Shown here piece by piece: positions 42,301 to 64,000 of a stretch of DNA of 64,000 bases. A model generated the notes under the pieces. It did no database searches. It was not told the DNA's origin and worked only from the letters and a program-made list of their open reading frames with translations. The translations under genes and the position numbers were made by a program. Position 1 is the stretch's first letter; each line of letters begins with the position of its first letter. The stretch comes from Escherichia coli (lineage in GTDB: Bacteria > Pseudomonadota > Gammaproteobacteria > Enterobacterales > Enterobacteriaceae): NCBI RefSeq assembly GCF_046105845.1, contig NZ_CP151004.1, one strand, 5' to 3'.

Positions 42301-42718
42301 CTGATGTGCTGGCATTGCTGGCTGACTTCTTCGCGGCTGCTGTGTTCTGTGCCACCGCGGACGCGTTACGCGCCACCTCTTCCACCATCAGTTCAAAACG
42401 TCGCAGTGCCTCCGGACGGGTATCATCCTCCGTCATGGCACCGAGAAAATCATTCAGCGTACCGGGTTGAGAATCTTCATACACGGTGATGGTCCCGGCA
42501 TGTGACGGCGGGAATCCCTCCACCAACAGAATAACGCTGTACTGACCGTACTCAACGTCCATACTGTAACGCCCGGCTTCATCCGGATTTTCTGAGGCCA
42601 GCGTGTTCACCACCACAGTGGTACTGTTACGTTTTGCTTTCAGCTGGATTGTGCAGTTCTGTACCGGTTTTCCTGTGCCGTCTTTCAGTACACCTGAAAT
42701 CTTTACTGCCATATTCAC
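39359..42718 (-). CDS. Lambdoid side tail fibre protein (Stf-like), 1119 aa with long Ala/Ser/Thr-rich low-complexity region
   Basis: ORF track; N-terminus [17 protein letters not shown] typical of Stf; StfR-like length. Confidence 0.8.
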
Positions 42719-43442: not shown

Positions 43443-44948
<1,506 letters not shown>

Positions 44949-47232: not shown

Positions 47233-47533
47233 AACGCACACCTCCGGAAATACCTTCCCCAAGATGCATCAGTTCTTCGTCCGTTCGCTCCGGTATCCCG
47301 TTCTCTTCCGGTAAAAGGCTGAAATCAGCCACCGCAGCATCACTGCTACCGGACACCATTCTCACGATCAATGCCTTCAGCGAGGCAAACTGCGCATCCA
47401 TCCACACATCACTGAAGCTCTGCATCCGGAAATAATCGCCCCACTCACCAAGCTCAGTGGCCGACATTTCCGACAGCATCCGCCGCCAGTCTGCCCGTCG
47501 GAACTCCCGGGCAAGCCGCATGACAAACTGCAT
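47204..47533 (-). CDS. Tail assembly chaperone T portion (expressed as G-T fusion by -1 frameshift)
   Basis: ORF track; -1 frame relative to G, open from within the last codons of G; candidate slippery GGAAAAG (plus-strand 47548-47554). Confidence 0.6.
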   Translation of the reverse strand: MQFVMRLAREFRRADWRRMLSEMSATELGEWGDYFRMQSFSDVWMDAQFASLKALIVRMVSGSSDAAVADFSLLPEENGIPERTDEELMHLGEGISGGVRYGPDSQPGH

Positions 47534-47541
47534 TTCCCGCG

Positions 47542-47928
47542 TCAGGACTTTTCCGGCGTCAGCGCCTCATGCTCATCATCCCCGGCATTATCAATGGTCC
47601 CCATACCGCTCAGCGACAGAACCATCTCCGCCCCCGCACCCAGGGCATCATACGACCATGTTGTAATAACGGATGCGCAAAGCGTCTCTACATCCTTAGA
47701 CTGATCCGCATTCCACAGTGAGCGGGAAACCAGCCAGGCATTGATATCCATCCCCATCCGCAGAAAAGCAATCTGTCGTTCAGCCTCCGGCAGTTCTCCC
47801 TCTTCGGCATCAAACTTTGCCGTTCGCTGCTGAACAAACGCCAGATATTCAATTCTCTGCAGCCCGGACAGCTCACTGAGCACCACGGACTGCTTTTCAT
47901 AATTAAACGTGCCCTGTTTCAGAAACAT
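47542..47928 (-). CDS. Tail assembly chaperone G (lambda gpG-like)
   Basis: ORF track 47542..47970; start at MFLKQGTF resembles lambda G MFLKTESF. Confidence 0.7.
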   Translation of the reverse strand: MFLKQGTFNYEKQSVVLSELSGLQRIEYLAFVQQRTAKFDAEEGELPEAERQIAFLRMGMDINAWLVSRSLWNADQSKDVETLCASVITTWSYDALGAGAEMVLSLSGMGTIDNAGDDEHEALTPEKS

Positions 47929-47988
47929 CATGTTCTCCACCTGCAAAAAAGCCCCGGATAATCGGGGCAAATGATGAGTATCGTCCTG

Positions 47989-48732
47989 TTAACCTGCGGC
48001 GCTGACAGCCACCGTAGCCACTGCCACAAAATCGCCGTCAGAAGTCATGCCCACAATGCTGACACTGCCCTGCTTCACGCCTTTCACCGTGGCCACAAGC
48101 CCGTTCAGGGTCACCGTGGCAGTCTGTGGATCTGTCGAATGCACACTGATCGCTTTGTCACTGGCTCCGTCAGGTTTTACTGTAAAGGTCAGCGTGGTGG
48201 TTGCTCCCACTTTTACACTGGCAGATGCCGGTGCCACCGTCAGCCCGGTAACGCCCACGGTTTCAGTGCCTTCTTCTGCCAGATACGGACGCCCCACACC
48301 GCTGATTTTCACTGTGCGGGTCATCACGTCTTTTGAGGCAATGGTTTTACCCAGTGAACTCAGCCAGCCACGGAAAACATCAACAGTACCGTTGGGATAT
48401 TTGATACGAAACGCGCAGACTTCACCGGAGTCGAACAACTGAACCAGTTTTTTCTGCCCGCTGTCACCCGGACGCCAGGCCAGCGTCGCCGAAGTATCAC
48501 CGACGGATTTCTGCCCCTGGGTTGTCGTTTTCCAGTCTGCATCTTCATCATCGAGATAAGTGTCATCTTCTGCATCAGCGGTCATTTCGCCAGGTTGCAG
48601 ATCCTTCACCATCGCAAGACGCAGCCAGTCAGTGTCCGACAAAGGGTTCGCAAACGCATCGCCGTTGCCGGTATACATCCAGAACGTCGTCCCCGCACCT
48701 TTCGTCTTTGCCAGTGGATTTGGTGTGGTCAT
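47989..48732 (-). CDS. Major tail protein V-like with C-terminal Ig-like domain
   Basis: ORF track 47989..48807; start at MTTPNPLAKTKGAGTTFWMY; about 247 aa. Confidence 0.8.
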   Translation of the reverse strand: MTTPNPLAKTKGAGTTFWMYTGNGDAFANPLSDTDWLRLAMVKDLQPGEMTADAEDDTYLDDEDADWKTTTQGQKSVGDTSATLAWRPGDSGQKKLVQLFDSGEVCAFRIKYPNGTVDVFRGWLSSLGKTIASKDVMTRTVKISGVGRPYLAEEGTETVGVTGLTVAPASASVKVGATTTLTFTVKPDGASDKAISVHSTDPQTATVTLNGLVATVKGVKQGSVSIVGMTSDGDFVAVATVAVSAAG

Positions 48733-48742
48733 TACCACCTCC

Positions 48743-49144
48743 TTAATTCGTGTACGTGATCTGGTACGTGATTTCCGCCATCGCCCAGGTGGCCATCTCA
48801 TTATCACGTTGATAGTTAAAACCGAGTGGGATCAGGGTGTCGATGAGTCCGGAAAGTGCCGGTACATCATTCAGGGCAGGGAAAATGGTGCTCTCCATCC
48901 ACATATCCAGCTCTGAATCCGGTGCCTGTGCCCGGATGAAGACGGCAATATGCAGAACAGCCTGCCAGTCATCTTCATCCGTCATTTTTCCGGTGTACTG
49001 AGCATCACTCAGCCACACCGCCACGGCAGGCAGTTCCTGCGCATCAATAAATGCCGGAAGCCCGTCAAAAAACGTGGCGCTGTCTCCACACTGTTCCCGA
49101 AGGCGTGCCAGTACGGCCTGGCGGATTTGTGTATGTCGGTTCAT
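48743..49144 (-). CDS. Minor tail protein U-like (tail terminator)
   Basis: ORF track 48743..49156; resembles lambda U (..ATFFDG..PAVAV...ITY..). Confidence 0.7.
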   Translation of the reverse strand: MNRHTQIRQAVLARLREQCGDSATFFDGLPAFIDAQELPAVAVWLSDAQYTGKMTDEDDWQAVLHIAVFIRAQAPDSELDMWMESTIFPALNDVPALSGLIDTLIPLGFNYQRDNEMATWAMAEITYQITYTN

Positions 49145-49719
49145 CGGGTCAGCCATAACCTCAGTTGTTGTTTCAGTGCATACCCCAGCTGTTTCGGCAT
49201 TTCCGCAGCAATGATGTGGTCACGGGCATCTTCAAATGCCTGTGTCAGCGGTCCGGACAGCGGGATTTTCACCACATCAATGGGGTAACGATTTTTGCCA
49301 TCAATACGTCGCATCACATGCCAGCGACCATTCGCCAGTTGCTGAATAAACGCATCCCGGAAAAGATATTTACCCACCTTCAGCACACTGCCACGGTACT
49401 GCAGTTTTCCACCACGCCGGGCCAGTCTGACCCGGGCTGTCCCCAGCTTAATGGCGGGCAGATTGCCTCGGTTAACGCGGATCCTGGCCGTCATTTTTCC
49501 TGACGGACTGGCTTTAAACACCCGGACACGCTGACGTACCAGTTTCAGGGGGATCCCTTTCACCTGGTTATCTCCCGCAACGGTATTCCCGGCAACCTGC
49601 CGGGTGGCAACCGAGACCGCTTTCTGTGCCACACGGTTTATCGCCCATGCGCTGGCCTGTGGCACCATACGGGTATCAAGGCTGTTCAGATTGCGGATGG
49701 CATTCTCAAGCCCCTTCAT
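49141..49719 (-). CDS. Tail completion protein Z-like (192 aa)
   Basis: ORF track; position and size as lambda Z. Confidence 0.65.
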   Translation of the reverse strand: MKGLENAIRNLNSLDTRMVPQASAWAINRVAQKAVSVATRQVAGNTVAGDNQVKGIPLKLVRQRVRVFKASPSGKMTARIRVNRGNLPAIKLGTARVRLARRGGKLQYRGSVLKVGKYLFRDAFIQQLANGRWHVMRRIDGKNRYPIDVVKIPLSGPLTQAFEDARDHIIAAEMPKQLGYALKQQLRLWLTR

Positions 49720-49730
49720 CCCACACCTCT

Positions 49731-50006
49731 TTACTCAATAAAGATCATTGGCTTACCGTTAAAGCGTTCATGCCGTGTGACCGTCCATTGTTGTCCGTCA
49801 TAAACAACGCGATCCCCGCGCCGTGGGCGGTATCCCGAAGAAAACACCACCAGAGAGACCGCAGGTCCGGACAGAGCATTCAGCTCTGCCAGTGTTTCTC
49901 CCGGGATCACAGTCATATCGACATCATTAATCGAGGCTGTCTTTCCCATCTTTCTGACCGTGATCGCATCCATACGCGCTGCCAGCCGGGAAAAGGGATC
50001 AGACAT
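49731..50006 (-). CDS. Head-tail joining protein (gpFII-like), 91 aa
   Basis: ORF track; position between head genes and Z; assignment by synteny. Confidence 0.45.
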   Translation of the reverse strand: MSDPFSRLAARMDAITVRKMGKTASINDVDMTVIPGETLAELNALSGPAVSLVVFSSGYRPRRGDRVVYDGQQWTVTRHERFNGKPMIFIE

Positions 50007-50322
50007 TGAGTTTTACCGGCACTTCTTCTGCACTGGTTCCGGCATCTGCCCAGACAACCCCGACCAGCGGATCAGAGCCACTGTTAGTCAGCTGAACTTT
50101 TCCTGACTTCATATAAACCTTCTTACCCGTTTTCATGTCATCCGTTTTCAGCTTAGGCAGCATAAACACACCTTCGGTTATGCCGTCGCCTGTTTCTCCC
50201 TGTGGAATATCGGTCAGCGCCACCGCAAAAACATCACCCACCTGCACCAGATCTCCGCTGCTGATGGCTGCACTGGCAACAATCGCCACCGTTTTTCCTT
50301 CTTCTACAAAATTCTTTGCCAT
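49999..50322 (-). CDS. DUF2190-family small head protein (possible decoration/stabilisation protein)
   Basis: ORF track 49999..50367; start at MAKNFVEEGK; follows capsid gene. Confidence 0.45.
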   Translation of the reverse strand: MAKNFVEEGKTVAIVASAAISSGDLVQVGDVFAVALTDIPQGETGDGITEGVFMLPKLKTDDMKTGKKVYMKSGKVQLTNSGSDPLVGVVWADAGTSAEEVPVKLNV

Positions 50323-50408
50323 AACTGTCTCCGCACAGCCCCGTTCAGGGGCTGATTTCAGGTACAAAAAAAGCCCTTACGGGCCATCAGAGTTGTTGTC
50401 TGCGACGT

Positions 50409-52367
50409 TTACGCCGTACATTTCACCAGGCCGCGGTGATCAACTGGCGCAACACCAGCGTCAATACGTACTTTCGTTGTCACGCCATCCACACTGAAGC
50501 CCTCCATCTGATCAATATATGGCGTATCCACACCGTTGAGATAAGCCACTTCAATCGTATCGGAGCCTTTGGACGCAGCCAGGTAGAAGGTGGTCTGGCT
50601 GTTATCATCAAGACGAGGCTCTGCAATAACGGTCGCAAAATCTTTCACCGGGTTAATAATACCGGCGTTAATGTCAGCCCCCTTGACACTTGAGGAGCGA
50701 ATGACCTGGTTAGCAACAGACTCCATCGCCGTCGGTACCAGTACGAACGCAGGACGAATATTCAGATGACGCTCACCCTCTTTCTGAACGCGCATCAACT
50801 GGCGGGCTTTATCCAGCGATGCCACGTCCATTGCCGCGCTCTCCAGTACGTTTGCATGTTTCGCTTTATCGAACAGACTTACATTATCTGTGGAGATTTT
50901 CGGGTTAGACGTCAGAATGGCATAAACCAGATCGGCAATAGTGGATTTCGCCGCACGGCCCAGCTTCATCGGGACATCGGTCAGCATATTCAGATCATCA
51001 TTGATAATGGCCTGACGGGTGATACTGAACAGCTCGCCATAGGTCGCCAGTGCAATAGTGGCCTGTTTATCTCCGGTGGTGACGTATTTATATTCTGCCC
51101 CTTCACGCACCTGACGCAGAGCACTGAAGCCCCCCATACCCACACGATGGGCAATTTTAAAATCAGACAACTGACCTTTCCGCGTCCACTGTTCATAGGT
51201 TTCAGGGGCATCTTCCCAGCCCTGCAGAATGGCTTTGTTCGCAACATCCAGCAGAATATTACCGAAGTCAGACGTACTGTGTGTGAACGCCGCACCGACC
51301 ATCTGCATCGGGTTATAACTGGAAACACCAATACCACGTTCAGTCAGTGACATACGGGCATATTCACGCAGGGTCATCCCGTTGTAGACATTATCACGTT
51401 CGGTTTTTTCAAACCCGGCGCGCGCCATCAGCGCCTGGCGGATCCCGTCCCCCACAAAATTACCGTTACCGGCATAAATATGAGCCGGGGTATTTTTATT
51501 GGATGGCGTGGACTCGCGCCCCATCTCGTTCAACAGCTTTTCGCGGGCCTGCTCCAGCGAACATTCAGGATCGGCAAGACACTGAGCCTGCAGCGACTGA
51601 TAACGCCCACCAAACATGGCAAACAGATCATTAATACCGTTTACACGCGCTTTTTGCTCTGCCAGGACCTGCGCACGGATGCTGTTTTCATCCACCACGG
51701 GTGCTGCTGCCTGCACTGGCGTCCGGGAGGCTGCAGGTCCATCATCCTGTACGCGTGGAGCACTGTTGCGTGGCGGAGTAATCATATTTCGAATGGATTC
51801 CGGCATCTTTTTAAATTCCTCTGTACGTTTTGACTGAATACATGCCATTGCCTTAATGGCTGGTGTCACCTGATCAGCAAATCCCTGTGCCAGACATTCG
51901 GCACCGGACATCCAGGTCTCATCCGCCAGCATGGCAGCAATTTCATCGGTGGTTTTCCCGGTTTTCTGTGCATAAGCGGGTAACAGAACCGCCTCAACTT
52001 TATCGAGCAGGTCGGCATAGGTGCGCATGTCCTCCGCATCACCGCCCGTAAAGCCAAATGGTTTATGAATCATCATGAAGGAGTTTTCCGGCATAATGAC
52101 CGGGTTTCCCACCATCGCAATGACCGACGCCATTGACGCCGCCACACCGTCGACATAAACGGTAATGGACGCACCATGTGTTTTCAGTGCATTAAAAATG
52201 GCGATGCCTTCAAAGACATCGCCACCCGGTGAATTAATATGGAGATTAATGTGGGTGATATCGCCCAGTGCATTCAGATCACTGATAAACTGCTTCGCCG
52301 TAACACCCCAGAAACCAATCTCGTCATAAATATAAATATCCGCGTCACTCTGGTGACCTGCCTGCAT
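50409..52367 (-). CDS. ClpP-like head maturation protease fused to major capsid protein
   Basis: ORF track 50409..52628; start set after the portal stop at MQAGHQSDADIYIYDEIGFWG; ClpP-like N-terminus and capsid C-terminus. Confidence 0.75.
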   Translation of the reverse strand: MQAGHQSDADIYIYDEIGFWGVTAKQFISDLNALGDITHINLHINSPGGDVFEGIAIFNALKTHGASITVYVDGVAASMASVIAMVGNPVIMPENSFMMIHKPFGFTGGDAEDMRTYADLLDKVEAVLLPAYAQKTGKTTDEIAAMLADETWMSGAECLAQGFADQVTPAIKAMACIQSKRTEEFKKMPESIRNMITPPRNSAPRVQDDGPAASRTPVQAAAPVVDENSIRAQVLAEQKARVNGINDLFAMFGGRYQSLQAQCLADPECSLEQAREKLLNEMGRESTPSNKNTPAHIYAGNGNFVGDGIRQALMARAGFEKTERDNVYNGMTLREYARMSLTERGIGVSSYNPMQMVGAAFTHSTSDFGNILLDVANKAILQGWEDAPETYEQWTRKGQLSDFKIAHRVGMGGFSALRQVREGAEYKYVTTGDKQATIALATYGELFSITRQAIINDDLNMLTDVPMKLGRAAKSTIADLVYAILTSNPKISTDNVSLFDKAKHANVLESAAMDVASLDKARQLMRVQKEGERHLNIRPAFVLVPTAMESVANQVIRSSSVKGADINAGIINPVKDFATVIAEPRLDDNSQTTFYLAASKGSDTIEVAYLNGVDTPYIDQMEGFSVDGVTTKVRIDAGVAPVDHRGLVKCTA

Positions 52368-52380
52368 CCTGAACCAGGAA

Positions 52381-53889
52381 TTATTCTTCGGACTGGTCGT
52401 CGGTGTGCTGCGGCTCCTGTCGTTTCGTTGCGGCACTGCTGCCTCCTTTATCACTGGCCGGATCGGTATCAAATACCAGATCCAGCTTGCGGTTTTCATC
52501 AATTTCGGCCTTGCGCCGACGTTTGACATCATCCGGATTACGACCACCTGCACGTACCCAGTCTGATTCTGTCGCCGCTCCACCACGAATCTGAATTTTC
52601 CAGGCCTCAGCCTCCTTAACAGGGTCAATCCACGGCATCACCGGTCCGGAATACACCGCGGTATACAGTGAAGAACGATCAAGATCGCGGGGTAGCCTGA
52701 TAACACCGGATGCCACAGCCTGTTTCAGCCAGGCACGATACATCGGGCGGGTGACGGCACCAATAAACCAGTCCTGCAGGATCAGGTAGCCATCAGTGGA
52801 TTCAACCAGCTCCTGACGCTGGGCGCTGTAAGTGCCGTTATAGTTGCGCGCTGTACTGGAAAAACTCAGACGACTGCCCGCCGCCACGGCACGCAACTGA
52901 CCATTACGAAAAGTTTCAAGATTAGGATTGGGGCGATCCGACTTCACCATTCCGATTTCTTCGCCGGGTTTCAGATCGTCGTAAATAATGCCTGGCTGAA
53001 TGGTAAGCTCGCGTTCCTTATCCTTGCTGCCATTACCATCCGGTTCATAGCTCTGCCCGTCGCCTTTCCGGATGTACATCCCCAGAGCAGCGGCGATCCT
53101 TGCTGCAGTCAGCTCAGAATCTTCATACTCTTTCAGGGCACTGAGGCGGATCAGCACACCGGACAACAAAGACGTCCCGCGCATCTGGTGCAGACGGCGA
53201 ACAAATTTAAGATGCAGCATTCGCTCTGCATCCACTTCTTTGGTTTCCATCTGCCGTCCGGATACGGGACGGCTTTTATACACCAGATATTTTTCGGGAC
53301 GCCCCCAGTCATCAACAAACACGCCCTGATTCAGCCTGTTGCTCTCATCACTGGTCATGGGAATAAAGTCCGGCTCGAGCGCCTCCAGCCAGAAATGAAC
53401 ACCGGCAGAAGGCGTCAGGCTGTTTATGCGCCCGGAAACCATCTGGGCAAACACCTCACCATCGCGCAGCCAGGTACGCAACATCAGACGTTCCAGCATC
53501 GGACGGGTAAACTGCCCGGTGACTTCCGGACTGACAGACCATTCACTCCATCGGGTGCGTATCTCCGCTGCCAGATCACGGGCAATGGCCCCATTGCGTA
53601 ATACCGGATGTGGCTCGACAATAATCCCGTTTTTCCCCACCACCCGTTCTTCCAGCTTGTCAAATACACCAATGACCAGATCGTGGTTGTTATCAAGGTA
53701 ACGGGCCTGCTCACGTAACGACACGGCCCCGTACTGGCTTAACTGGTCGGCAGTTCGGTTTTCCCGCCGGGCTTTGTGTGTCCGCGTCGTTTTTACGGCC
53801 TCATAAGCCTGGATCACCGCACGGGAACGCAGCCTTGCCGCTTTCCATCCTGGTGAAAAAACGCCAATCACATCATCAAGAATTGCCAT
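52381..53889 (-). CDS. Portal protein (lambda B-like)
   Basis: ORF track 52381..53961; start set at MAILDDVIGVF overlapping the W stop. Confidence 0.8.
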   Translation of the reverse strand: MAILDDVIGVFSPGWKAARLRSRAVIQAYEAVKTTRTHKARRENRTADQLSQYGAVSLREQARYLDNNHDLVIGVFDKLEERVVGKNGIIVEPHPVLRNGAIARDLAAEIRTRWSEWSVSPEVTGQFTRPMLERLMLRTWLRDGEVFAQMVSGRINSLTPSAGVHFWLEALEPDFIPMTSDESNRLNQGVFVDDWGRPEKYLVYKSRPVSGRQMETKEVDAERMLHLKFVRRLHQMRGTSLLSGVLIRLSALKEYEDSELTAARIAAALGMYIRKGDGQSYEPDGNGSKDKERELTIQPGIIYDDLKPGEEIGMVKSDRPNPNLETFRNGQLRAVAAGSRLSFSSTARNYNGTYSAQRQELVESTDGYLILQDWFIGAVTRPMYRAWLKQAVASGVIRLPRDLDRSSLYTAVYSGPVMPWIDPVKEAEAWKIQIRGGAATESDWVRAGGRNPDDVKRRRKAEIDENRKLDLVFDTDPASDKGGSSAATKRQEPQHTDDQSEE

Positions 53890-54107
53890 CAGAACCTCGC
53901 AAGCCGGTACCCGGGATGCCCCCGTCGTCGTGTAATCAGAGCCGCAAGGCGGCGCTCCCACTCCTGCCGTCCCTGCCGGATCTCAGATAAGTTTTCCATG
54001 GTCATCTGCTGACCATTAAAGGTGACGGATTTTCCGTCCAGCACCGCCATTTCAGCTTCCGTATAACGCTGAATCATGGCTTCGATATCATTCTGGTTCA
54101 TAACCAT
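53889..54107 (-). CDS. Head-tail joining protein W-like (72 aa)
   Basis: ORF track; between terminase large subunit and portal. Confidence 0.6.
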   Translation of the reverse strand: MVMNQNDIEAMIQRYTEAEMAVLDGKSVTFNGQQMTMENLSEIRQGRQEWERRLAALITRRRGHPGYRLARF

Positions 54108-56200
54108 CCTCCGGAAGTCAGCCAGGGGTTAACATCGTCAGTTACTGTTTTCTTCCGTTTTTGTTTTTTAACAGGCGTGGATACCGGTTCCGGTGTGGGT
54201 GACGGTTCGGTACTGTCCGGGACACACTCCAGCCAGGTTTCCCGGCTCGCCCACTCCGGTGCATCCGGCCAGCGGATCTTTTCGTATCCATGCAGAATGA
54301 CCAGAGCCTCGGCATACACCATCAGGTCAAAAGCTTCGTTGGCACCGCGACCCGGCTTACTCCATTTCCCGTCACTGCTCCGCTCTTCATACGTCAGTTC
54401 GTCGTAAAACCAGCTCCCCAGCCAGTCAGGGAAATGCACATAGCCGGGACCTGGCGAGTCACGCCATAACGCGTTATTCACCCGGTCTTTCAGGGCATCC
54501 GTCTGAAGAAGCCAGAGCGGTACATCACCTGCGGCCTGCGCCCGTCGGCCCGTTCGTCCGGTGTTATCAGGGAATGTACGGGTGATCAGTTTTGCGCGCC
54601 GGATGCTGTCGCCCTTAAACAGGTAAATACGTTTACCAAGGCCATCACGACGGCAACGACGCCAGAATTTATAGGCATTATCAGTGACTCCGTCTTCACC
54701 GCCGGAGTCCACCGCCATTGCCATCAGTCGCATTTGTTGAGAAGGATCGGAGGCCAGCGGCCAGCTTTTATGAAAAACATCCGTCAGCAGGACATCCCAG
54801 TCTTCCGGATAGCTGGCCGGATCAATTCGCTGGCTCTCCCCGTCGCTGTCACCGCGCAATGACTGCGTGATGTTGTAACGATCAATAATCCAGCGTTCGC
54901 CACGGCTGCCATAGCCCGTTACCTGAACCACAAAACGGCGATGACGTCCCGCCTGCACATCAACTGTCGCCACCAGGAAATTAACGCCATCCGGCACACT
55001 GCGGGAAGGAACTGGCTCTGCCCGCTGCTCAAGCAGTTCACTTTTTCGTTGCTCCATGCTGGCACGGGGAAGATAAGGTAATCCCCAGTCGGTATTGATA
55101 ACCGTCTTGAGTGTTTCTTCACTTCCGGTTGTCTCGTATTCCTGTTCTGCAGCAAGCAGTTTGTAAACGAGTTGCGAGAGTGTCTGGTAAGCAGCTGCCG
55201 GACCCTCCATCCAGAATGACGCAATACGTGAGCGTCGGGGATCACCATAACGACTGCCATCCGCATTGATGGATTCACCATCCCGCAACCAGACCCCACG
55301 TCCGTTCAGCTCACGTTTTTGTTCAGGCATAATCCGTCCTGAACAGGAAGGACACTGAATATAAGCCGCCTCACTTGCCAGCACGGGATCGGCAATATCA
55401 CGGAAACCAGCAACCACATCGCCGCAGGGCTGAAAATACTCACCACAGTGTGGACAGGGCCAGTACCAGCGACGGCGATCGCCACGGTTATAGAGCGACA
55501 GTATCCCCGTGGTTGGTGGAGCCTCATGCGGTGAAGTCCGTCGCCATTTCACATCCTTCACATCCCTGCCGGGGGAACTCTCCACCAGCGTCATACCACT
55601 GGACATAAATGTGGTGGTACGTTTTGAGGCAAGAGAGAAGGCATCCCCCTCGCCATCAATATCTTCCGGAAAACGGTCATAATCCGTCAGCGCCACGCAT
55701 TTATAATCTGATGAGGACATGATATTGACTGACGGCCAGCCGATTTTCAGGTAGTTGCCAGCAAGGAATGTTCTGTCATAAACGTTGTTGTCATTTTTGT
55801 TCGGACTCAGGCGACTGACCACTTCCGGGCTGACGCGAAACGTTCTGGCAAGTCGTTTTTTGGAGTGTTCGCGGGCTTTTTCCTCCGTCATCTGAATGAT
55901 CAGCATATCAGCAGGATCGCAAATCACGTTGTAAATCACCCAGCCGTCAATCAGGCCGATAGTCTTGCCAGTTCGTGCCGGGCCAACAAATATCACTGCG
56001 TCGTATTCACGCGAGGCCAGGCAGTTCATCGGCTCAATAACATACGGTGCCACCAGCGGATCCCACGGGACTGAGTTCCCGGCCCCCATGGGCACCCGCA
56101 TATACTGAGCAACGGCATCAGCAACCCGCATTCGTCTCGGTGCGCGAAGGATATAACCTGAATCGGTTCGTGCTGCCTTTGCGGTTTCCTGATTCAGCAT
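54098..56200 (-). CDS. Terminase large subunit (lambda A-like), 700 aa
   Basis: ORF track; Walker A GPARTGKT, nuclease domain. Confidence 0.9.
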   Translation of the reverse strand: MLNQETAKAARTDSGYILRAPRRMRVADAVAQYMRVPMGAGNSVPWDPLVAPYVIEPMNCLASREYDAVIFVGPARTGKTIGLIDGWVIYNVICDPADMLIIQMTEEKAREHSKKRLARTFRVSPEVVSRLSPNKNDNNVYDRTFLAGNYLKIGWPSVNIMSSSDYKCVALTDYDRFPEDIDGEGDAFSLASKRTTTFMSSGMTLVESSPGRDVKDVKWRRTSPHEAPPTTGILSLYNRGDRRRWYWPCPHCGEYFQPCGDVVAGFRDIADPVLASEAAYIQCPSCSGRIMPEQKRELNGRGVWLRDGESINADGSRYGDPRRSRIASFWMEGPAAAYQTLSQLVYKLLAAEQEYETTGSEETLKTVINTDWGLPYLPRASMEQRKSELLEQRAEPVPSRSVPDGVNFLVATVDVQAGRHRRFVVQVTGYGSRGERWIIDRYNITQSLRGDSDGESQRIDPASYPEDWDVLLTDVFHKSWPLASDPSQQMRLMAMAVDSGGEDGVTDNAYKFWRRCRRDGLGKRIYLFKGDSIRRAKLITRTFPDNTGRTGRRAQAAGDVPLWLLQTDALKDRVNNALWRDSPGPGYVHFPDWLGSWFYDELTYEERSSDGKWSKPGRGANEAFDLMVYAEALVILHGYEKIRWPDAPEWASRETWLECVPDSTEPSPTPEPVSTPVKKQKRKKTVTDDVNPWLTSGGWL

Positions 56201-56691
56201 TACTCCTCCTGCTGTAATTCCTCCTCATCATCCGCACCTGCTTCGGTCACCCGCAGGGCTATCTGATCGCGCAGATCATCAATAATGGACTGAACACGGC
56301 TCACAGCGGCAGGCTGCAGGCCGCAGTCACGTTCCAGAATATCCGGTAATGTCTCCAGCACCTGCACGACCGCTTTTGCCCAGATGGCAAACTCCCGTCT
56401 GACATCACTGGCCGGAATGAGTTGTGCCGTTTCCTGTTCGAACTTAAGACGCTCACGTTCAGACTGATACCAGGCTTTGCGTTCATGTGGATCCATTTCG
56501 CCCTCAGCAACCGGCGGTGGTAACCCCATAAATTCAGTCAGAATATCGGTCAACCGGTATAGCTTGAGTTTGTCATGTCCACCAGCGGGACGAATGTTTT
56601 TCAGTCTTGCCACGACAGTCTGGCGGTGCAGACCAGATAAAGCCGCCAGTTGATTAATATTCAGCACCAGGTTTTTCAACTCATGATCCAT
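56200..56691 (-). CDS. Terminase small subunit (Nu1-like, N-terminal HTH)
   Basis: ORF track; directly upstream of terminase large subunit with overlapping stop/start. Confidence 0.7.
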   Translation of the reverse strand: MDHELKNLVLNINQLAALSGLHRQTVVARLKNIRPAGGHDKLKLYRLTDILTEFMGLPPPVAEGEMDPHERKAWYQSERERLKFEQETAQLIPASDVRREFAIWAKAVVQVLETLPDILERDCGLQPAAVSRVQSIIDDLRDQIALRVTEAGADDEEELQQEE

Positions 56692-56860
56692 ATTTCCTCC
56701 GGAGAGCTTTAAACATGCATCGTGCGAACAACTTTAAGAAAACGCGTTCGATGTCGAACAAAAAACACTCAATTCGACATACAAAAAACAAACAACCATT
56801 AATAATCAATAAGATGCAAAGATGATGGTGGCCGATAAGAATGCAAAAACTAGCCTTTTT

Positions 56861-56880
56861 CCGCGACGCTCCCGCCCCGT
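56861..56880 (-). other. Candidate cos site (cohesive-end cleavage region), about 186 bp upstream of the Nu1-like start
   Basis: Minus strand reads GGGCGGGAGCGTCGCGG, similar to the lambda left end GGGCGGCGACCTCGCGG as I recall it; spacing to Nu1 like lambda. Confidence 0.5.
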
Positions 56881-57244
56881 GGCAGGGCCCCCCCCCAGGG
56901 AGGACCCGACAGCCTGACAACCGTGACGAGCATCTGAAACAGAGCTTTACATAATGGCGTGGGGATAATTCAGAAGGACATCACAGCATGCCCACACAAA
57001 TTAGTGTGAGTGTCCTGTTTCTTACTACGCGCAGGACTGACGAGCATGAGGGGAAAATACGCGAACCGAAATGCCTTATCTTCAGAAATGCAGCCGGCAT
57101 CCGAACTGGACGATATTGTAAATTCACCTAAATACGAGGCATTGCTGTAGTTGAATTGCAGTACTGTATTAGCCTGACAGTGACAGAATACGATATTGAC
57201 TCTGTCACTTGTGAAATGGTCAGAATGGTTAGCAGTTATGGTGA

Positions 57245-57451
57245 TCAGTCAACCACCAGGGAATAATCCTTCGTATTCTTATCGTGCTTTACTAACGCGG
57301 CCTCAATTGCCCTGAATGCTTCCAGAGATACTTGATGTTCTATACATGCAATTACAACATCCGGGTAACCCATCGAAATGGTGCTATTAAGCATAGTTTT
57401 TACACGAACCTGCTCCTGGGAGGGGGCATCAGTGTATTGATCTTTATGCAT
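57245..57451 (-). CDS. Hypothetical 68-aa protein between P2-like ogr and the lambdoid cos region
   Basis: ORF track only; no recognised family. Confidence 0.35.
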
Positions 57452-57775
57452 TTTGTCGCTCCATGCGTTTGCTCTTCACTTGCGGCTAAAAATATAACGT
57501 CAAATCACTCAGCATGAAAGAGTGAAAGTTTCAGCGCGTTTCCCTTACATAATCTGTCGTTTGTATTCTCTTCAGGCATACCGGAAAGACTAGGTATTGT
57601 CACACAACCAATACCATCGACAATCGAGATTTATATCTATTCGGTAATGTTTAAATATAACAAAACCCCGTAAAAACGAGGTTTATGGGTATTTTGTTGT
57701 CTGAAATTTATGCCGTTTAAAATCATGACGTTAGAAGCACTGTTTTTTAACGATGGCGACAAAATGGCGGCAGCG

Positions 57776-57991
57776 TCAAAGAGAGAGCGCCACCTGTCCT
57801 GATTTCATTGGATGCGGCTGAACCGGATTTGACTCTTTTGGCGTTGCAATCGAACGAACAAAAGTTTCATGGGTTACAAAAGTATGGCTGCAGTTAATAT
57901 TCTGGCACTGGTTGTAACGCTCTTTGGTCAATGAAGATACCTGAAAACTGCTGCGAGTATGGGCGGCACTTCCACACAGTGGGCAAATCAT
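57776..57991 (-). CDS. ogr: P2 Ogr-type zinc-finger late-gene activator (about 71 aa)
   Basis: ORF track 57776..58027; CPLC...CQNINCSHTF zinc-binding pattern matches Ogr (CPLC...CQNVNCSATF). Confidence 0.8.
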   Translation of the reverse strand: MICPLCGSAAHTRSSFQVSSLTKERYNQCQNINCSHTFVTHETFVRSIATPKESNPVQPHPMKSGQVALSL

Positions 57992-58084
57992 CATTTTTCG
58001 AGTTCTCCCCATTTTTGCTAAATTCACAATAATGATACCGCATTATTCCATTTTGCAAACTTAAAAGTTCTCCATTGCGAAGAA

Positions 58085-59185
58085 TCATTCCATTTCGAAA
58101 TCATCAATCCTCACTTCAAGCTCCAAACTGGTCGTAAAACCGTTATCCGGGCTGACGGTATGCGTCAGAGTCGTAATGGTCCATTCCGCATCATCTATCG
58201 GCTGTTTAAAACCACTGACCTTCACAGGCATTTCCGTGTAGAGATCTGCCCGCCCTTCTGCCAGTTGTAGCGAAAATGACGCAACGCCGCGTTGCAGGCG
58301 TTCCCACTGCATTTTCGCCGCTCGTTCGGCGTTGCTTCGGTTGGCATAAGTGCGATTAAGTACCAGCACGTTTTCATCCGTACCCACCAGGTAATCGCCC
58401 TGCTTCGCTTCTGGCTCTTTCTTCTGCTTCTTAGTTCTGCGCTTACGCTTCACCGTGGTGCTTTCTTTCTTCGCAGGTTCGCGGGTATGCAACCAGCTGG
58501 CAATTACGCCCGTGTAGGCTCCGCGATCTGCCAGGGTAAATCGGTGACTGTCGCCGTCCTTGCGTGTGATAGTGATCACTGGCAGAGGTTTACCAGTGGC
58601 GCTTTTGCCCTGCCCCTGCCGGATGAATAACAGATTGCCATTTTTCACCGACGCGATGGCACCGTACTGTCGCGCCAGCCGCATCAGAAAACTGCCGTCA
58701 CTCTCATTAGTCTGGTCTATATGCTCCACGGGCTTATCCGACAGGTCTTTACCCAGTGCCATCTTCAGCTTGTGCCGCGCGGCTATTTCCTTCACCACTT
58801 CCCCGACGGTGGTCTTATGCCACGATTTTTCACGGCGGGTATTCAGCGTTTCCCGAAAATCAGCACTTCGCGCCCGGATAGTCAGGCGGTCCGGTGCGCC
58901 AGTGTGTTCAATCTCGTCCACTGTGAATGCCCCTTTCGGGAAAAGCGGCTGCCCCTTCCAGCCCAGCGCCAGCGTAATAACCGCACCACGGCGCGGCAGC
59001 ACGATTTTTCCGTCAGCGTCATCCAGCTCCAGATCAAGCTGGTCCGCTTCAAAGCCCCGGTTATCCGTCAGCGTCAAACTCATCAGGCGGTTATCCAGCA
59101 CAGTGGTGATATCCCTGCCCTCAATACTGATGCTGAATGCGGGAGTTTTGTTGCCTTTGTTAAGCAGTTCAGAGCTGAAATTCAC
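58085..59185 (-). CDS. P2 gpD-like late control / tail protein D (366 aa)
   Basis: ORF track; position between U and ogr. Confidence 0.85.
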   Translation of the reverse strand: MNFSSELLNKGNKTPAFSISIEGRDITTVLDNRLMSLTLTDNRGFEADQLDLELDDADGKIVLPRRGAVITLALGWKGQPLFPKGAFTVDEIEHTGAPDRLTIRARSADFRETLNTRREKSWHKTTVGEVVKEIAARHKLKMALGKDLSDKPVEHIDQTNESDGSFLMRLARQYGAIASVKNGNLLFIRQGQGKSATGKPLPVITITRKDGDSHRFTLADRGAYTGVIASWLHTREPAKKESTTVKRKRRTKKQKKEPEAKQGDYLVGTDENVLVLNRTYANRSNAERAAKMQWERLQRGVASFSLQLAEGRADLYTEMPVKVSGFKQPIDDAEWTITTLTHTVSPDNGFTTSLELEVRIDDFEME

Positions 59186-59667
59186 GACAGCAGCCCTCCC
59201 ACCGTTTTACTGATATCGCTTAAGGCAGACGTTGCCGTGTCCTGCAGATTATTCAGTTGCGCACTGAGATCACCGAACATATCGGACAGGGATTCATCCA
59301 CTCGTTTGAGCGACAGGGTGAACTCAATCCGGCGCGGCATACCGTCGCGGAAAAACTCCGTTTTAGTCTGATTCAGTCCCTCAATCACATACATGCCGTA
59401 AATCGTGCCGCTGCCTTCAATCAGGGGCCATGCTTTCCCCTGTTCTGCCATCTGCTCCAGTGCCAGCAACGACAGCCTGCCGCCTGTTATCTCCGGCATA
59501 AGAACACCGGAAAGCGTCAGCATGTCGTTGTCCGGTCCCAGAAACTGCGTGGACGGACGACGATTTACCCGGCTGTTAGCCACATGTCGCCAGCTGCGCT
59601 GATACTGCAGTTCCTGATACGGCACGGTGCGCAGCATAAACACGTACAATCCCAGCACCATCATCAT
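59182..59667 (-). CDS. P2 gpU-like tail protein (161 aa)
   Basis: ORF track; overlaps D start and T stop. Confidence 0.8.
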   Translation of the reverse strand: MMMVLGLYVFMLRTVPYQELQYQRSWRHVANSRVNRRPSTQFLGPDNDMLTLSGVLMPEITGGRLSLLALEQMAEQGKAWPLIEGSGTIYGMYVIEGLNQTKTEFFRDGMPRRIEFTLSLKRVDESLSDMFGDLSAQLNNLQDTATSALSDISKTVGGLLS

Positions 59668-62600
59668 GCGTCGTATCCCCCCTGATCGCTGTAGTTACTC
59701 CTGGCTTTTGCCTTCAGCCTGCGTTCACGTTCATCAAGCTGGCGGGCCACCTCCCGCGCAATATCCTGCGCACTTTGTCCTGGCTGTGTCTGGATGATGA
59801 TCTGCGTCGGTGCTTCAATCCGTTGAACGGGCGGCACAGTGGCTGCACGACTCACCATCGCTTCACCGCCTTTCGCGGGAAGTGCCAAAGGGTGCAACGG
59901 TGGAAGCTCTGCTGGCGTAGCAGCAACACCCATCATTCCGGCAACAACGGCAGCCAGTGCAGCTGTATTTCTCCGGCTGGTCACATTTGCCGGGCCGTTA
60001 ACAATTTCCGGCCCGTTTTCACCGACGATGCCAAACTGCCCGCGCGGGATATACCCGCCGCTGTCATACATCCCCGCAAAGCCATATCCCCATGACGGAA
60101 AACCACCCGATGGCATCATCACTTTACCGTCTGCATTCACCGTCGCAGGTTGCTGACGCGTCACGCTTTCCGGCAGTTTCGCCTTTGCGGCCTCTTTACT
60201 GACAATGCCAAGTTTCTCCAGCAACCAGGAAACGCCGGATTTCAGCGAGTCCAGCGGATGCATGACCATATTCAGCCCTTCCGCCAGAGCCTCCCCGAAT
60301 CGTCGCCCCATTGCCGCTGCACTCTGCAGTTCGGCAGAGGTCGACTTAACGGGCGTCAGCAGATCAGTAAACCAGCCCCACAGCGCCTGTACTTTGTCGC
60401 CAATCCACTGGAACACAGGCTTAAGCGGTTCGAACGCGGCACTGACAGGACCTGCCGCCGCTTTGAATCCTTCCACCACGCCACCGAGAAATGCGGTGAT
60501 GGGCTGCCAGTATTTCCAGACAACCAGCGCCACACCCGCCAGTGCAGTAACCACAAGACCTATCGGACTGAGCAGAGCACCTAACAGACCAGAGACGGCA
60601 TACAGGGCAACGCGCAGCATCGCCAGTGGACCGGATGCGAGCATACGCAGCACCGTGCCTGTGGCAGCCAGTCCGCCGCGTAGTACCGCCAGTGGATTCA
60701 TAAACATCACAGCAACCGCACGTAAACCGGATAATCCAGACCGCAAAAGTGCAACCGGCGCACCTGCTACAGTTTTCAGGATATTTCCCGTCAGTAATGC
60801 CGTGCGGCGCAAAGACGACAACGGCGCAGTAAGTAAACCTGCAGCGTTGCCCGATGAAGCAAGCCCGCGTCGCAGCAGTGCCAGTGGTGCGCCAGCCAGC
60901 CAGGACAACGCGTTGCTGGTTCGGGTTACTGCTGCCGTAACGGAAGGTAACGTTTTGATACCCAGCACAGAGAATCCCAGACGGATGACTGCCAGCGGCC
61001 CCAGCACTGCAGCCAGCGCCACCGCTAAGGTGCCGAGGCCCACGGTAACGGCAGCTACCACAGCGGCTACTTTCATCAGAGTGCCCGTCAGTTCCGGGTT
61101 AGCTTCCACCCAGCGACGCAACGCCCCCGTGACGCTTTTCACCGTGTACAGAATATCCATCAGCGGCTGGCGCAGCGTTTCCCCCAGGCTGCTGAAGGTG
61201 TTCTGTGCTCCGGTTTTGACCAGCAACCACTGAGCAGAAAGTGAATCCTTGTTGATGTCGGATTCTTTCTGCATGGAACCGAGCGCATCATTGCCCGCTG
61301 TCAGTTTTAACTGGCGCTGAAGTTCCGGCAGGTTGTTTGCCAGTTTCGCTGCGTCATCGCCAAACTCTTTACCAAACAACATGGTCATGGCAGACAGGCG
61401 CTTATCCTGTGGCAGCGCATTCACCTTCTCCAGCACGCGCTGGATAGTTCCCATCGCATCCTTCGTCATCTGCTTTTCAATCACTTCTGGATTGAGTTTC
61501 AGCAGATTCATCCCTTCAAAGAAACTCTTGCTTTGCATGGTGGCAATGGACAATTCACGCACCATCGCGTTTGCTGCACTGGCTGCAACCTCAGGCGCAG
61601 CGCCGAGTGTCAGGAAGGTGGAACCCAGCGCCGCCGCTTTACGATAATCCAGACGGTCAGCCACACCGCCCAGGCGTTGCATGACATCAATGATGTCCGC
61701 CCCTTTCGACATGGCGTTATCATCCAGATAGTTCAGCGCATCACCGAGCTGCTCAATATTGCGGGTAGGGATTTTGTAGAGCTGGGCGATTTTCCCCAGA
61801 CTTTCTGACAGTTCATCCGCTGGCAGTTCAAAGGCTGTTGCCGCCTTTGCCGCCGTGCTGGCGAAGGCCAGCAGGTCACGTTTCTGATCTTCCCAGCTGT
61901 CGTCAGGGTTTGCGACGTTCATGCGCGCACCACCTTCAACCAGTGCAGCGAAGTCCACCGCACCGTTTTCCATCGGCAACTGTTCGCTGGCAGCCTTGAT
62001 GGCATCCTGCATTTCATAAAAACGTGCAGTGCGGTTGCCATTATCGTCACGCAGACCATTGACCTGCTTTGCCACACCTTTCATGGCATCTTCCATGCTG
62101 GTATAGCTTTTTACTGCCGCCATCACTGGCGCACCCATTGCCAGCCCTGCAGCCGTGGTGGTAGCTCCGGCACCTGCAATACGATCACGCACCTCCAGCG
62201 AACGGGCATAACTGGCACGCGCTGCATTCATCCTGCGCTGAGCTTCCCCCAGTCGCTTCAGCCGCGCCTCCTGTTTCGAAAGTTCCTGGTTATAACGTGA
62301 TGTTTCACGGGCTAAACGGGCAGTTGCTCCCGCATCGTCTTTCGCAGAAATTCCCGCCCGGTACAGTTCAGCACGCACAAGCGCCGTCTGCTGCTGCAGC
62401 TTTTTCTGGCGTTCTTCTAGGCGCTGAACAGCCAGCCGTTGACGGCCCAGAGCAACAACCTGACGTTGCGAAGGCGGCCCCATCGCTCCCAGTTCCTGAC
62501 TGAGCAAATTTGCACGCTGGCGGGCATAGTTCAGCCTGTCGCCTAATTTCTGATTTTCTGCCTGCAGCTTTCGGAAGCTGTCCAGACTGCTCCCGGCCTG

Positions 62601-62741
62601 ATCAAGCTGCTTTATTGCATCGCGGGATTTTTTGACAGCAGCAGCCAGTTCTCTTGAACTGGCCTGCGCAGATCGAAATGGGCGGGTGAGCTTGTCAACC
62701 GCATTAAGAATGACCTGCAGACGCAGGTTGTTATCACTCAT
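59664..62741 (-). CDS. P2 gpT-like tail tape measure protein (1025 aa)
   Basis: ORF track; long coiled-coil plus hydrophobic repeat region, follows E/E+E'. Confidence 0.85.
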   Translation of the reverse strand: MSDNNLRLQVILNAVDKLTRPFRSAQASSRELAAAVKKSRDAIKQLDQAGSSLDSFRKLQAENQKLGDRLNYARQRANLLSQELGAMGPPSQRQVVALGRQRLAVQRLEERQKKLQQQTALVRAELYRAGISAKDDAGATARLARETSRYNQELSKQEARLKRLGEAQRRMNAARASYARSLEVRDRIAGAGATTTAAGLAMGAPVMAAVKSYTSMEDAMKGVAKQVNGLRDDNGNRTARFYEMQDAIKAASEQLPMENGAVDFAALVEGGARMNVANPDDSWEDQKRDLLAFASTAAKAATAFELPADELSESLGKIAQLYKIPTRNIEQLGDALNYLDDNAMSKGADIIDVMQRLGGVADRLDYRKAAALGSTFLTLGAAPEVAASAANAMVRELSIATMQSKSFFEGMNLLKLNPEVIEKQMTKDAMGTIQRVLEKVNALPQDKRLSAMTMLFGKEFGDDAAKLANNLPELQRQLKLTAGNDALGSMQKESDINKDSLSAQWLLVKTGAQNTFSSLGETLRQPLMDILYTVKSVTGALRRWVEANPELTGTLMKVAAVVAAVTVGLGTLAVALAAVLGPLAVIRLGFSVLGIKTLPSVTAAVTRTSNALSWLAGAPLALLRRGLASSGNAAGLLTAPLSSLRRTALLTGNILKTVAGAPVALLRSGLSGLRAVAVMFMNPLAVLRGGLAATGTVLRMLASGPLAMLRVALYAVSGLLGALLSPIGLVVTALAGVALVVWKYWQPITAFLGGVVEGFKAAAGPVSAAFEPLKPVFQWIGDKVQALWGWFTDLLTPVKSTSAELQSAAAMGRRFGEALAEGLNMVMHPLDSLKSGVSWLLEKLGIVSKEAAKAKLPESVTRQQPATVNADGKVMMPSGGFPSWGYGFAGMYDSGGYIPRGQFGIVGENGPEIVNGPANVTSRRNTAALAAVVAGMMGVAATPAELPPLHPLALPAKGGEAMVSRAATVPPVQRIEAPTQIIIQTQPGQSAQDIAREVARQLDERERRLKAKARSNYSDQGGYDA

Positions 62742-63170
62742 CGTTGGCCCCGCTTCTCTGAATCGCTTTATACCGCCATTCCAGCACTTCGGTCAGCGGC
62801 ATAACGTCAGTAACGGATGGCGGCCAGTGAAAAATGGTGGCGATATCTGCCACCAGATCGTCAACCGTCAGGCTGTCGGTAAACCGGCAAGCACCGACTT
62901 CTTCAACAAAAAAGTGACAACCTCAACCGACATGGCAGTGAGATCTGCCGGGTCCATCTCTGCAATTTCCTGTGCAGTCAGTGCCGGACTGGAGATGCGG
63001 GGGATCACGGTCATCATCGCGTTTACATCCATATCCATAATGGCCTGCAGGCGTGTACCGCGCAGCGCACCGGACTGCGGTTTACGCAGCACAATTTCGG
63101 TGATTTCTGTTTTACCGCGCTTGATGGGGGTATCCAGTTGAATGGTCTTTTCAGTCTGCTTATCGCTCAT
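62734..63170 (-). CDS. P2 gpE / gpE+E' tail assembly chaperones (E = 62868..63170; E+E' by -1 frameshift at T-TTT-TTG, plus-strand 62907-62913, ending 62734)
   Basis: ORF track for E; manual translation shows -1 frame open from the slippery site to a TGA overlapping the T start codon. Confidence 0.75.
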
Positions 63171-63195
63171 TTTGCTGTCCTGTCAATTGGGTTCT

Positions 63196-63213
63196 GGCGC
63201 GGTATCCCGCGCC
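63196..63213 (-). terminator. Hairpin downstream of FII (P2-type attenuating terminator between FII and E)
   Basis: ggcgcggtatcccgcgcc GC-rich stem-loop 12 bp after FII stop. Confidence 0.5.
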
Positions 63214-63224
63214 GTTCAGATATA

Positions 63225-63740
63225 TCAGAGGCCGAGGGCGTTGCGGTGCGCTTCCATCAGGTCCACACCGTCCACAATTTCCACCATGTTGATAAGGTCC
63301 ACTTCATAGAGCACCTCACCATTGATGGTCAGCTTCGCGTAGCTGTTGGTACTGGTCACTTTGGTGGTGTTGCTTTCGCCCGTCTTCCACTCGCCGGAAT
63401 CCACTTCTTTGTGACGTCCACGCACGACAAGCTCCACGGCCTGCACTTCCGCGGTATCGTCACGCTGAATAGAGCCGGTAAAGCGCAGCTGGATGCCATC
63501 CACCGTGGCTTTACCCATCTGTTTAAACAGCAGCAATTCAGTACCACCAATGGAAAATTCTGTGTCCAGCGCACTGTCATCAAGCCCCAGATCCACATCC
63601 ACCGCACCCGGCATTCCGCCGCCGCGATACTTCTCATATTTGCGGGTAAATTTCGGCAGCGTCAGCGACTCAACGATCCCCTGCCAGTTGTTCCCGTCGT
63701 TAAACAGGTTCAGGTGTTTTAATTTGCGTGGTAAAGCCAT
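63225..63740 (-). CDS. P2 FII-like major tail tube protein (171 aa)
   Basis: ORF track; downstream of tail sheath gene. Confidence 0.85.
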   Translation of the reverse strand: MALPRKLKHLNLFNDGNNWQGIVESLTLPKFTRKYEKYRGGGMPGAVDVDLGLDDSALDTEFSIGGTELLLFKQMGKATVDGIQLRFTGSIQRDDTAEVQAVELVVRGRHKEVDSGEWKTGESNTTKVTSTNSYAKLTINGEVLYEVDLINMVEIVDGVDLMEAHRNALGL

Positions 63741-63749
63741 GTTGTCCCC

Positions 63750-64000
63750 TTACGCGCTGACCTGGCTGGCGAAATTCACCAGGTACTGATCGGTGATGCG
63801 CTGACGCAGCATCAGGTTTTCAAGTGGCGGCACTGGCGTGTAGTCGTAGTCGATGGTGAGTTTTCCGGCTTTCAGCGTGTCTTTGTCGTTCACCGACTCA
63901 TCCAGCCAGCAATCACCACCAATGAGATAGCCCTGACAGACCAGGCTGCGCATTTTGGCGCGGATACCTTCGATAATGTCGCGGGCCAGCGACGGGTTAA
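63750..64000 (-). CDS. P2 FI-like tail sheath protein, C-terminal end (gene continues beyond window)
   Basis: ORF track 63750..63953 and open frame to window edge; position upstream of FII. Confidence 0.7.

Follow-up and report, generated by a model that had tools for sequence, protein, structure and literature searches.

The analyzed window, a 64,000-nt stretch of Escherichia coli DNA, carries lambdoid terminase genes and, 1.1 kb away, the ogr gene of a P2-like phage. This arrangement raises the question of whether the locus is one hybrid phage, a stretch of junction DNA, or two separate prophages, and of where exactly the two phage genomes meet. All relevant genes, from the terminase to P2-type D, U, and T, are encoded on the minus strand (ORF list). 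The original prediction regarded the whole 1.1 kb as the meeting place of two phages, with a cos-like sequence, an orphan 68-aa ORF, and two inverted repeats as its features, and expected an att site or a recombination scar there. Comparison with relatives showed that the window contains two known prophages, the P2-like one nested inside the lambdoid one, rather than one hybrid phage or 1.1 kb of junction DNA. Nearly all of the 1.1 kb is what a lambda-like E. coli prophage normally has at its right end, including cos and ybcW. The features of the locus are listed in Table 1.

Table 1. Features at the right end of the lambdoid prophage and the adjacent end of the P2-like prophage (window coordinates)
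Feature	Position	Strand	Evidence
Large terminase, lambdoid gpA-like	54098..56200	-	700-aa ORF; Pfam GpA_ATPase and GpA_nuclease
Small terminase, lambdoid, DUF1441 type	56200..56691	-	Pfam DUF1441, E 4.6e-44; PHROG 141, E 2.7e-77
cosB-like region between cosN and terminase gene	56692..56865	-	Position analogous to lambda cosB
cosN cohesive-end sequence GGGCGGGAGCGT	56866..56877	-	Ends of phage Tritos linear record
Conserved inverted repeat AGTGACAGA-N13-TCTGTCACT	57179..57209	-	Repeat search
ybcW / lambda p79 homologue, 68 aa	57245..57451	-	PHROG 657, 1-68/68, E 4.6e-48
GGTATTG-N9-CAATACC hairpin, 7-bp stem	57593..57615		RNA fold z -0.48
Terminator-like hairpin of lambdoid phage, B arm of secondary att site	57663..57684	-	Terminator scan; fold z -2.8
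Hybrid att core of attR, ATGGGTA/TTTTGTT	57685..57698		Comparison with both parents
P' arm of P2-like attR	57699..57775		Candidate arm-type integrase sites
ogr/Delta late-gene activator, last gene of P2-like prophage	57776..57994	-	Pfam Ogr_Delta, E 6.7e-22
P2 gpD-like tail protein	58085..59185	-	ORF list

The lambdoid prophage adjoins prfC, and the housekeeping genes to its left (deoCA, yjjI to prfC) are 98.5% identical to E. coli, which identifies E. coli as the host. An exact-protein look-up found the identical large terminase protein (TerL) in 4550 collection blocks, and among the matches listed all 10 places were uninterrupted prophages. On the minus strand of uninterrupted relatives, the order is gnsB, a terminator hairpin, ybcW, the conserved inverted repeat, cosN, cosB, and the small terminase gene; past the breakpoint, these relatives contain gnsB, ynfN, ymcF, cspI, and the lysis genes. 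The cos sequence, the 68-aa ORF, and both inverted repeats therefore lose the role of junction features given to them in the original prediction, since they belong to a normal lambdoid right end and occur in the same order in uninterrupted prophages. The 68-aa ORF and the 9-bp inverted repeat are likewise present in lambda itself. On the other side, the P2-like late region continues past the gpD-like gene through U, T, E, and further genes to the end of the window; the ogr/Delta product is annotated as 72 aa in relatives.

The lambdoid prophage is defective. An IS3-family element on the plus strand (orfA, 43727-44074; orfB, to 44940) lies between two damaged tail genes. One is a tape-measure gene (44944-47262) truncated at its 3' end, encoding 772 aa versus about 1021 in relatives and lacking the Tape_meas_lam_C domain; the other is a gpJ remnant (43443-43742) retaining only the last ~80 residues. 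Genes M, L, K, and I and most of J are absent, and the damaged region spans 43443-47262. Identity to intact relatives begins at 44949. A serine invertase/resolvase gene (38096-38686, plus strand) is located at the end of the lambdoid prophage nearest prfC, beside the tail-fibre assembly gene and a gene for a side tail fibre of 1119 aa (38096-39359 and 39359-42718), an arrangement that suggests an invertible tail-fibre segment. P2-like relatives likewise have a resolvase between alternative fibre genes.

The join between the two phages was located by comparison with both parents. Window positions 44949-57697 were 99.90% identical to and collinear with the uninterrupted lambdoid prophage of CP075640, and positions 57679-64000 were 99.94% identical to a P2-like prophage located at ybjL; the two alignments overlapped at 57679-57697 only (blastn). 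When 56692-58100 was searched by megablast in 5,426 complete E. coli genomes, many matches of 99.7% identity appeared, all ending at 57697; the segment 56692-57691 is lambdoid and shares 99.7-99.9% identity with uninterrupted prophages. For the ogr side (57640-58400), matches of up to 99.6% identity beginning at 57679 were obtained in about 990 genomes, where the neighbor is ybjL. Since the parental identities meet at 57679-57697, the phage genomes join in a 14-bp core and not across 1.1 kb. Thus, an att junction is present in the stretch that had been proposed as the meeting place, although it is confined to 57685-57698, and everything from 56692 to 57691 is lambdoid. Put differently, end-to-end alignment with a single phage, which would have spoken against any junction, holds for 93% of the stretch (56692-57697) and fails for the last 78 bp.

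The hybrid nature of the core can be read base by base. All 11 uninterrupted lambdoid loci contain GGTTTATGGGTAATTTGTattg, all canonical attR sites contain GGTTGATGGGTTTTTTGTtgtctg, and the window contains the exact hybrid GGTTTATGGGTATTTTGTtgtctg. Its core is ATGGGTATTTTGTT, in the context GGTTT-ATGGGTATTTTGTT-GTCTGAAATTTATGCC, where all 11 uninterrupted lambdoid loci have GGTTT-ATGGGTAATTTGTA-TTGTTGAATAGC. A four-way comparison identified 57691 (A) as the last lambdoid-specific base and 57692 (T) as the first P2-specific base, so the crossover is mapped to a single phosphodiester bond. This switch within the 14-bp core, with target DNA on one side and phage DNA on the other, makes the junction an attR. 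The att site anticipated where the phages meet was thus recovered, as a hybrid core followed by a P2-like P' arm with predicted arm sites. The unoccupied target is also known, namely, GGTTTATGGGTAATTTGTATTG followed by gnsB in the 11 uninterrupted lambdoid loci. No Rfam family and no tRNA were detected in 56500-58100 (Rfam and tRNA searches), and, therefore, the att site is not a tRNA or tmRNA target.

Normally, the P2-like phage integrates in the interval from ybjL to rcdA. In E. coli 89-3156, the canonical attL beside rcdA reads ...ACATAA/ATGGGTTTTTTGTT/ATCTAAAATTTAT..., and the canonical attR beside ybjL reads ...AAGGTTG/ATGGGTTTTTTGTT/GTCTGAAATTTATGCC...; since ATGGGTTTTTTGTT is common to both, the identical core is 14 bp long, and a partly matching RTCTRAAATTTAT comes after it. 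The empty attB reconstructed from the ybjL arm, the core, and the rcdA arm was 100% identical in many genomes. It was uninterrupted in 4293 of 5426 complete E. coli genomes and interrupted in about 21%. The record of Klebsiella phage 4LV2017 has an attR annotated at the equivalent position. A class of integration sites named 'PhiECO1' has been placed at ~0.91 Mb in E. coli HS and CFT073 (PMC3448106), and these coordinates would fit the ybjL/rcdA locus. A literature search for a link between ybjL or ybjK and a P2-like phage or prophage returned nothing. The primary attB overlaps the 3' half and the T-run of a hairpin downstream of ybjL (CCCATCAACC...GGTTGATGGG TTTTTTGTT), and attP has a palindrome of its own, AACCCATTTA-CA-TAAATGGGTT, so that a hairpin and a T-run are kept on the ybjL side after integration.

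In the window, the flank of the P2-like prophage is lambdoid DNA near prfC and the core differs from the canonical one at 3 of 14 positions; the site is therefore a secondary attB. Of the 14 positions of the phage core ATGGGTTTTTTGTT, 11 are the same in the lambdoid sequence ATGGGTAATTTGTA. The likeness to the normal attB extends leftwards of the core, where both sites have AGGTT.ATGGGT with a hairpin before it, and this stem-loop is terminator-like in both. The hairpin at the lambdoid site was present in 11 of 11 uninterrupted lambdoid loci, where it lies downstream of gnsB. A phage origin of the AGGTT(G/T) motif left of the core was ruled out by comparing canonical attL with attR, which assigned it to the host or target arm. 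A search of the 64-kb window for the core-like motif gave a single occurrence, versus 0.02 expected by chance.

The P' arm contains two predicted arm-type integrase sites in direct orientation with a spacing of 11 bp, ATGGCGACA (57753-57761) and ATGGCGGCA (57764-57772). The same module, TGGCGACAAA(A/G)TGGCGGCAGCG, is found in the P arm beside the canonical attL, and the P' arm sequence CGATGGCGACAAAATGGCGGCAGCG (57751-57775) nearly duplicates AAGTGGCGACAAAGTGGCGGCAGCG of the canonical P arm. The module is the reverse complement of tgccGCCActt, the arm-site consensus of 186-type integrases described by Nilsson and Haggard-Ljungquist (PMC3448106).

Taken together, the locus most probably arose by integrase-mediated recombination between attP of the P2-like phage and a secondary attB inside an already defective lambdoid prophage, and we hold this explanation with high confidence. 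A temperate P2-like phage (Peduoviridae) with a 186-type integrase and switch would have inserted just upstream of ybcW by site-specific recombination through its tyrosine integrase, bypassing the normal attB between ybjL and rcdA. Its attP would have recombined with the secondary attB ATGGGTAATTTGTA, which follows the hairpin ending in GGTTT. The resulting attR would consist of the lambdoid B arm, ATGGGTA/TTTTGTT, and the intact P' arm with its two predicted integrase arm sites, with ogr coming next. Catalysis by the integrase is what we infer from this structure. Cleavage may have occurred between 57691 and 57692, with the 7-bp overlap TTTTGTT derived from the attP strand; the hybrid AT at core positions 7-8 points to this cleavage position and overlap. 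The use of secondary sites has been documented for integrases of the P2 family and of lambda (PMC3448106, PMC6379469).

At least 99.9% identity to both parents, a junction defined to the base, canonical attL, attR, and empty attB sequences, and the arm sites were all observed. The P2-like prophage runs off the window at 64000, so that the window shows the attR side only, with attL and the integrase gene beyond it. The reciprocal attL would lie ~27 kb past position 64000, and gnsB and the remaining lambdoid DNA would come after it. The predicted far end should read a P2-like int gene, a P arm ...AAGTGGCGACAAAGTGGCGGCAGCG...ACATAA, a core made of ATGGGTT and then either TTTTGTT or ATTTGTA, TTGTTGAATAGCATCTGATGAG, and gnsB; past gnsB, the order would be ynfN, ymcF, cspI, Rz, R, S, and the lambdoid early region with int. 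With three of the 14 core positions mismatched, two of these within the proposed overlap, integration at this site would be expected to be inefficient.

The junction proved to be unique in the collections searched. The nested arrangement was found in none of the 5,426 complete E. coli genomes (megablast). The exact attR pattern had no match in GTDB species-representative genomes, IMG/VR, or JGI metagenomes, the degenerate attR pattern had none in GTDB species-representative genomes, and the predicted attL patterns had none in IMG/VR and JGI metagenomes. As a positive control, the pattern of the canonical core plus the P' arm retrieved nine IMG/VR contigs, each of which has the ybjL arm. An identical tape-measure protein is encoded on 15 contigs, and in all 15 the prophage was at ybjL. 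Since the junction was detected in no other sequence, the arrangement rests on one assembly.

Three other explanations were considered. One is a chromosomal rearrangement in which the attR of a P2-like prophage resident at ybjL/rcdA recombined, through integrase or otherwise, with the lambdoid look-alike site near prfC, leaving the far side of the P2-like element still joined to rcdA. Every other copy of the P2-like phage examined sits at ybjL/rcdA, the attL side lies beyond the window, and integrases can recombine attR with secondary sites, all of which would suit a rearrangement. However, the P2-like late genes point in the same direction at both loci in the K-12 orientation. From the K-12 map, combined with the observed gene orientations, the two sites are therefore direct repeats ~0.9 Mb apart. 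Recombination between direct repeats would produce two circles, only one of them with oriC, which is not viable, while an inversion would require the opposite orientation. We consider a rearrangement very unlikely. An assembly or scaffolding chimera joining two prophage contigs is hardly credible either, even though the junction is unique among all collections searched and prophage regions are common sites of misassembly. At the join, only ATGGGT and TTTGT are common to the parents, with no long shared k-mer to mislead an assembler, and the join falls exactly inside the 14-bp core, between the attB-like hairpin arm and the intact P' arm. Such a base-perfect hybrid core is expected of site-specific recombination rather than of a misjoin. 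Finally, a single hybrid phage combining lambdoid packaging and head genes with a P2-type tail module, with cos between them, would account for the run of genes from T to the terminase on one strand without intervening host genes, but it can be dismissed with near certainty, because each side, as far as the att core, has at least 99.9% identity with a complete phage type of its own, the lambdoid side has tail genes of its own (tape measure, gpJ C-terminus, and side fibre), the P2-like side terminates in a normal attR P' arm, and uninterrupted relatives have gnsB and lysis genes in place of the P2-like DNA.

The other features of the 1.1-kb stretch belong to the lambdoid right end. The cos-like sequence proposed there was confirmed. 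On the minus strand, it reads ...CTGCCACG/GGGCGGGAGCGT/CGCGGAAAAAGG. In the linear record of phage Tritos, GGGCGGGAGCGTCGCGGAAAAAGG forms the exact start and ...CTGCCACG the exact end; these ends map to 56877/56878 in the window, which places the cosN cohesive end at 56866-56877. The coinciding Tritos ends and the start of the small terminase gene just downstream, at 56691, are consistent with a lambda-type cos. The sequence agrees at 9 of 12 positions with GGGCGGCGACCT, the lambda cohesive end, and by analogy the overhang would be 12 nt long. Twelve nucleotides upstream of the cosN nick, the minus strand carries a run of nine G (56889-56897); the run has eight G in the 99.7%-identical prophage of KY175, and Tritos has GGTGGGGG at this place. 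This difference may reflect either true variation in length or a sequencing error in the homopolymer.

In lambda, cosB lies between cosN and the small terminase gene. The corresponding region of the window contained an inverted repeat, ATGTCGAA-N14-TTCGACAT, at 56751-56780, and direct repeats ACAAAAAACA... at 56758 and 56781 (repeat search). By analogy with lambda, these repeats are candidate binding sites of the DUF1441 small terminase. In the segment 56745-56795, a small hairpin, TGTTCGACATCGAACG, overlaps the inverted repeat, and direct repeats ACAAAAAACACTCAA / ACAAAAAACAAACAA are also present. Between cosN and ybcW, a 48-aa ORF (56981-57127, minus strand) is an annotated CDS in phage HannyBb, and a 46-aa ORF (57010-57150, plus strand) has a partial match to PHROG 4035 (E 3e-9 over 24 residues). 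These small overlapping ORFs, which may or may not be coding, lie within 56981-57150, in a 250-bp segment without a lambda counterpart.

The 68-aa ORF had been described as belonging to no recognized family. The ORF is present at 57245-57451 as stated, but it is not an orphan, since a profile search matched it over its full length to PHROG 657 and the protein shares 79% identity with lambdap79 of lambda. Phage records name it YbcW. No significant Pfam or NCBIfam match was obtained. The gene occupies the same position, between the lysis region and cos, in lambda, Tritos, and PhiR phages. The ORF is 207 nt long in each of six variants, and the more divergent pairs among them have a dN/dS of ~0.1-0.4. 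A protein search found homologues limited to E. coli, Shigella, and lambda-like sequences. YbcW is predicted to be a three-helix protein (AF2 model, pLDDT 79), and a structure search with this model gave no informative fold match. The record MW057783.1, 'Campylobacter phage CJLB-4' (48,361 bp), has the same identity as lambda at near-identical coordinates, and a protein ascribed to the plant Dovyalis caffra shares 78% identity with YbcW; in both cases, lambda DNA seems to have entered an unrelated submission.

The two inverted repeats fared differently. The TGACAGA-N13-TCTGTCA repeat originally placed at 57181-57207 is real, and its extent had been underestimated: the arms are 9 bp long and span 57179-57209, starting 36 nt past the ybcW stop codon. 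In six lambdoid variants, including lambda, the arms were invariant in 17 of 18 columns and the loop varied; in the same variants, 66 of the 97 other downstream non-coding columns were invariant. RNA folding of 57179-57209 gave -19.5 kcal/mol (z -3.9). A canonical intrinsic terminator was considered for this repeat and rejected, as the stem is followed by UGUCAGGCUAAUAC with no U-run and the repeat was absent from the terminator scan. The repeat is conserved at lambdoid right ends and unrelated to the junction, and it would act either as an RNA hairpin in the late transcript or as a protein-binding palindrome. The 7-bp-stem hairpin at 57593-57615 exists as originally described. Its arms had 8 of 14 invariant columns, against a background of ~62%, and were not kept in lambda or Tritos; with this lack of conservation and its z score, the hairpin was rejected as a functional element and probably arose by chance.

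The nested prophages are a single rare instance of well-understood secondary-site integration. The main value of the analysis is a correct annotation of two nested prophages and one recombination event mapped to the base, since prophage-prediction tools would probably fuse both elements into one oversized 'prophage'. The locus provides a natural example of the use of a secondary site by a 186-type P2-family integrase. Its hybrid core, ATGGGTA/TTTTGTT, suggests where the overlap region begins and points to the tolerance of the integrase for 3 of 14 mismatches when the hairpin-plus-ATGGGT arm is kept. With the insert in place, cos and the head genes would be separated from the lambdoid region of lysis genes and late promoter, and successive cos sites would lie ~33 kb further apart. 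The wider claim that the site downstream of gnsB is a genuine, used secondary attB for the ybjL/rcdA class of P2-like integrases deserves little credence. Were it true, P2-like phages could lysogenize inside resident lambdoid prophages of a widespread family, and the lambdoid late promoter and lysis module would be cut off from cos and the head genes; the site would serve inter-prophage interference or offer an alternative place to integrate if the primary one is already taken.

The right end described here resembles that of lambda (lambdap79, 47738-47944, to cos) and the ybcW region of DLP12 in E. coli K-12, which have the same 68-aa gene. The inverted repeat GTGACAGAG...TCTGTCAC is in the same place downstream of this gene, with a lambda-type cosN beyond. 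Compared with lambda, the 250 bp from the inverted repeat to cosN are unrelated, three of the 12 cohesive-end positions differ, the small terminase, called Nu1-like in the original prediction, is of the DUF1441 type rather than Nu1, and the relatives of this prophage have gnsB upstream where lambda has the ybcV-like gene p78. An integrative element in the late region of another prophage is also known from helper-embedded PICI satellites, whose integrases are reported to target helper late genes specifically and repeatedly (PMC10111431). In contrast to these satellites, the target here is intergenic, the event is unique, and the normal target of the phage is chromosomal.

The P2-like prophage itself resembles the 'PhiECO1' class of E. 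coli HS, CFT073, and ATCC 8739 (Fels-2 group, 186-type CI/Apl switch) and Klebsiella phage 4LV2017 (Peduoviridae, Elveevirus). Its ogr-D-U-T region is 96-99.9% identical to theirs, and it shares their att core and P' arm, with predicted integrase arm sites of the 186 type. Unlike the 'PhiECO1' class, it is located inside another prophage instead of at ybjL/rcdA, and its attR core is the hybrid ATGGGTATTTTGTT. Integration by lambda Int at secondary attachment sites was reportedly described by Shimada, Weisberg, and Gottesman, and P2 has alternative loc sites in E. coli. Whereas the target here lies inside a resident prophage and the event is deduced from sequence only, it has in common with those systems a partial core match, a hybrid core, and intact phage arms.
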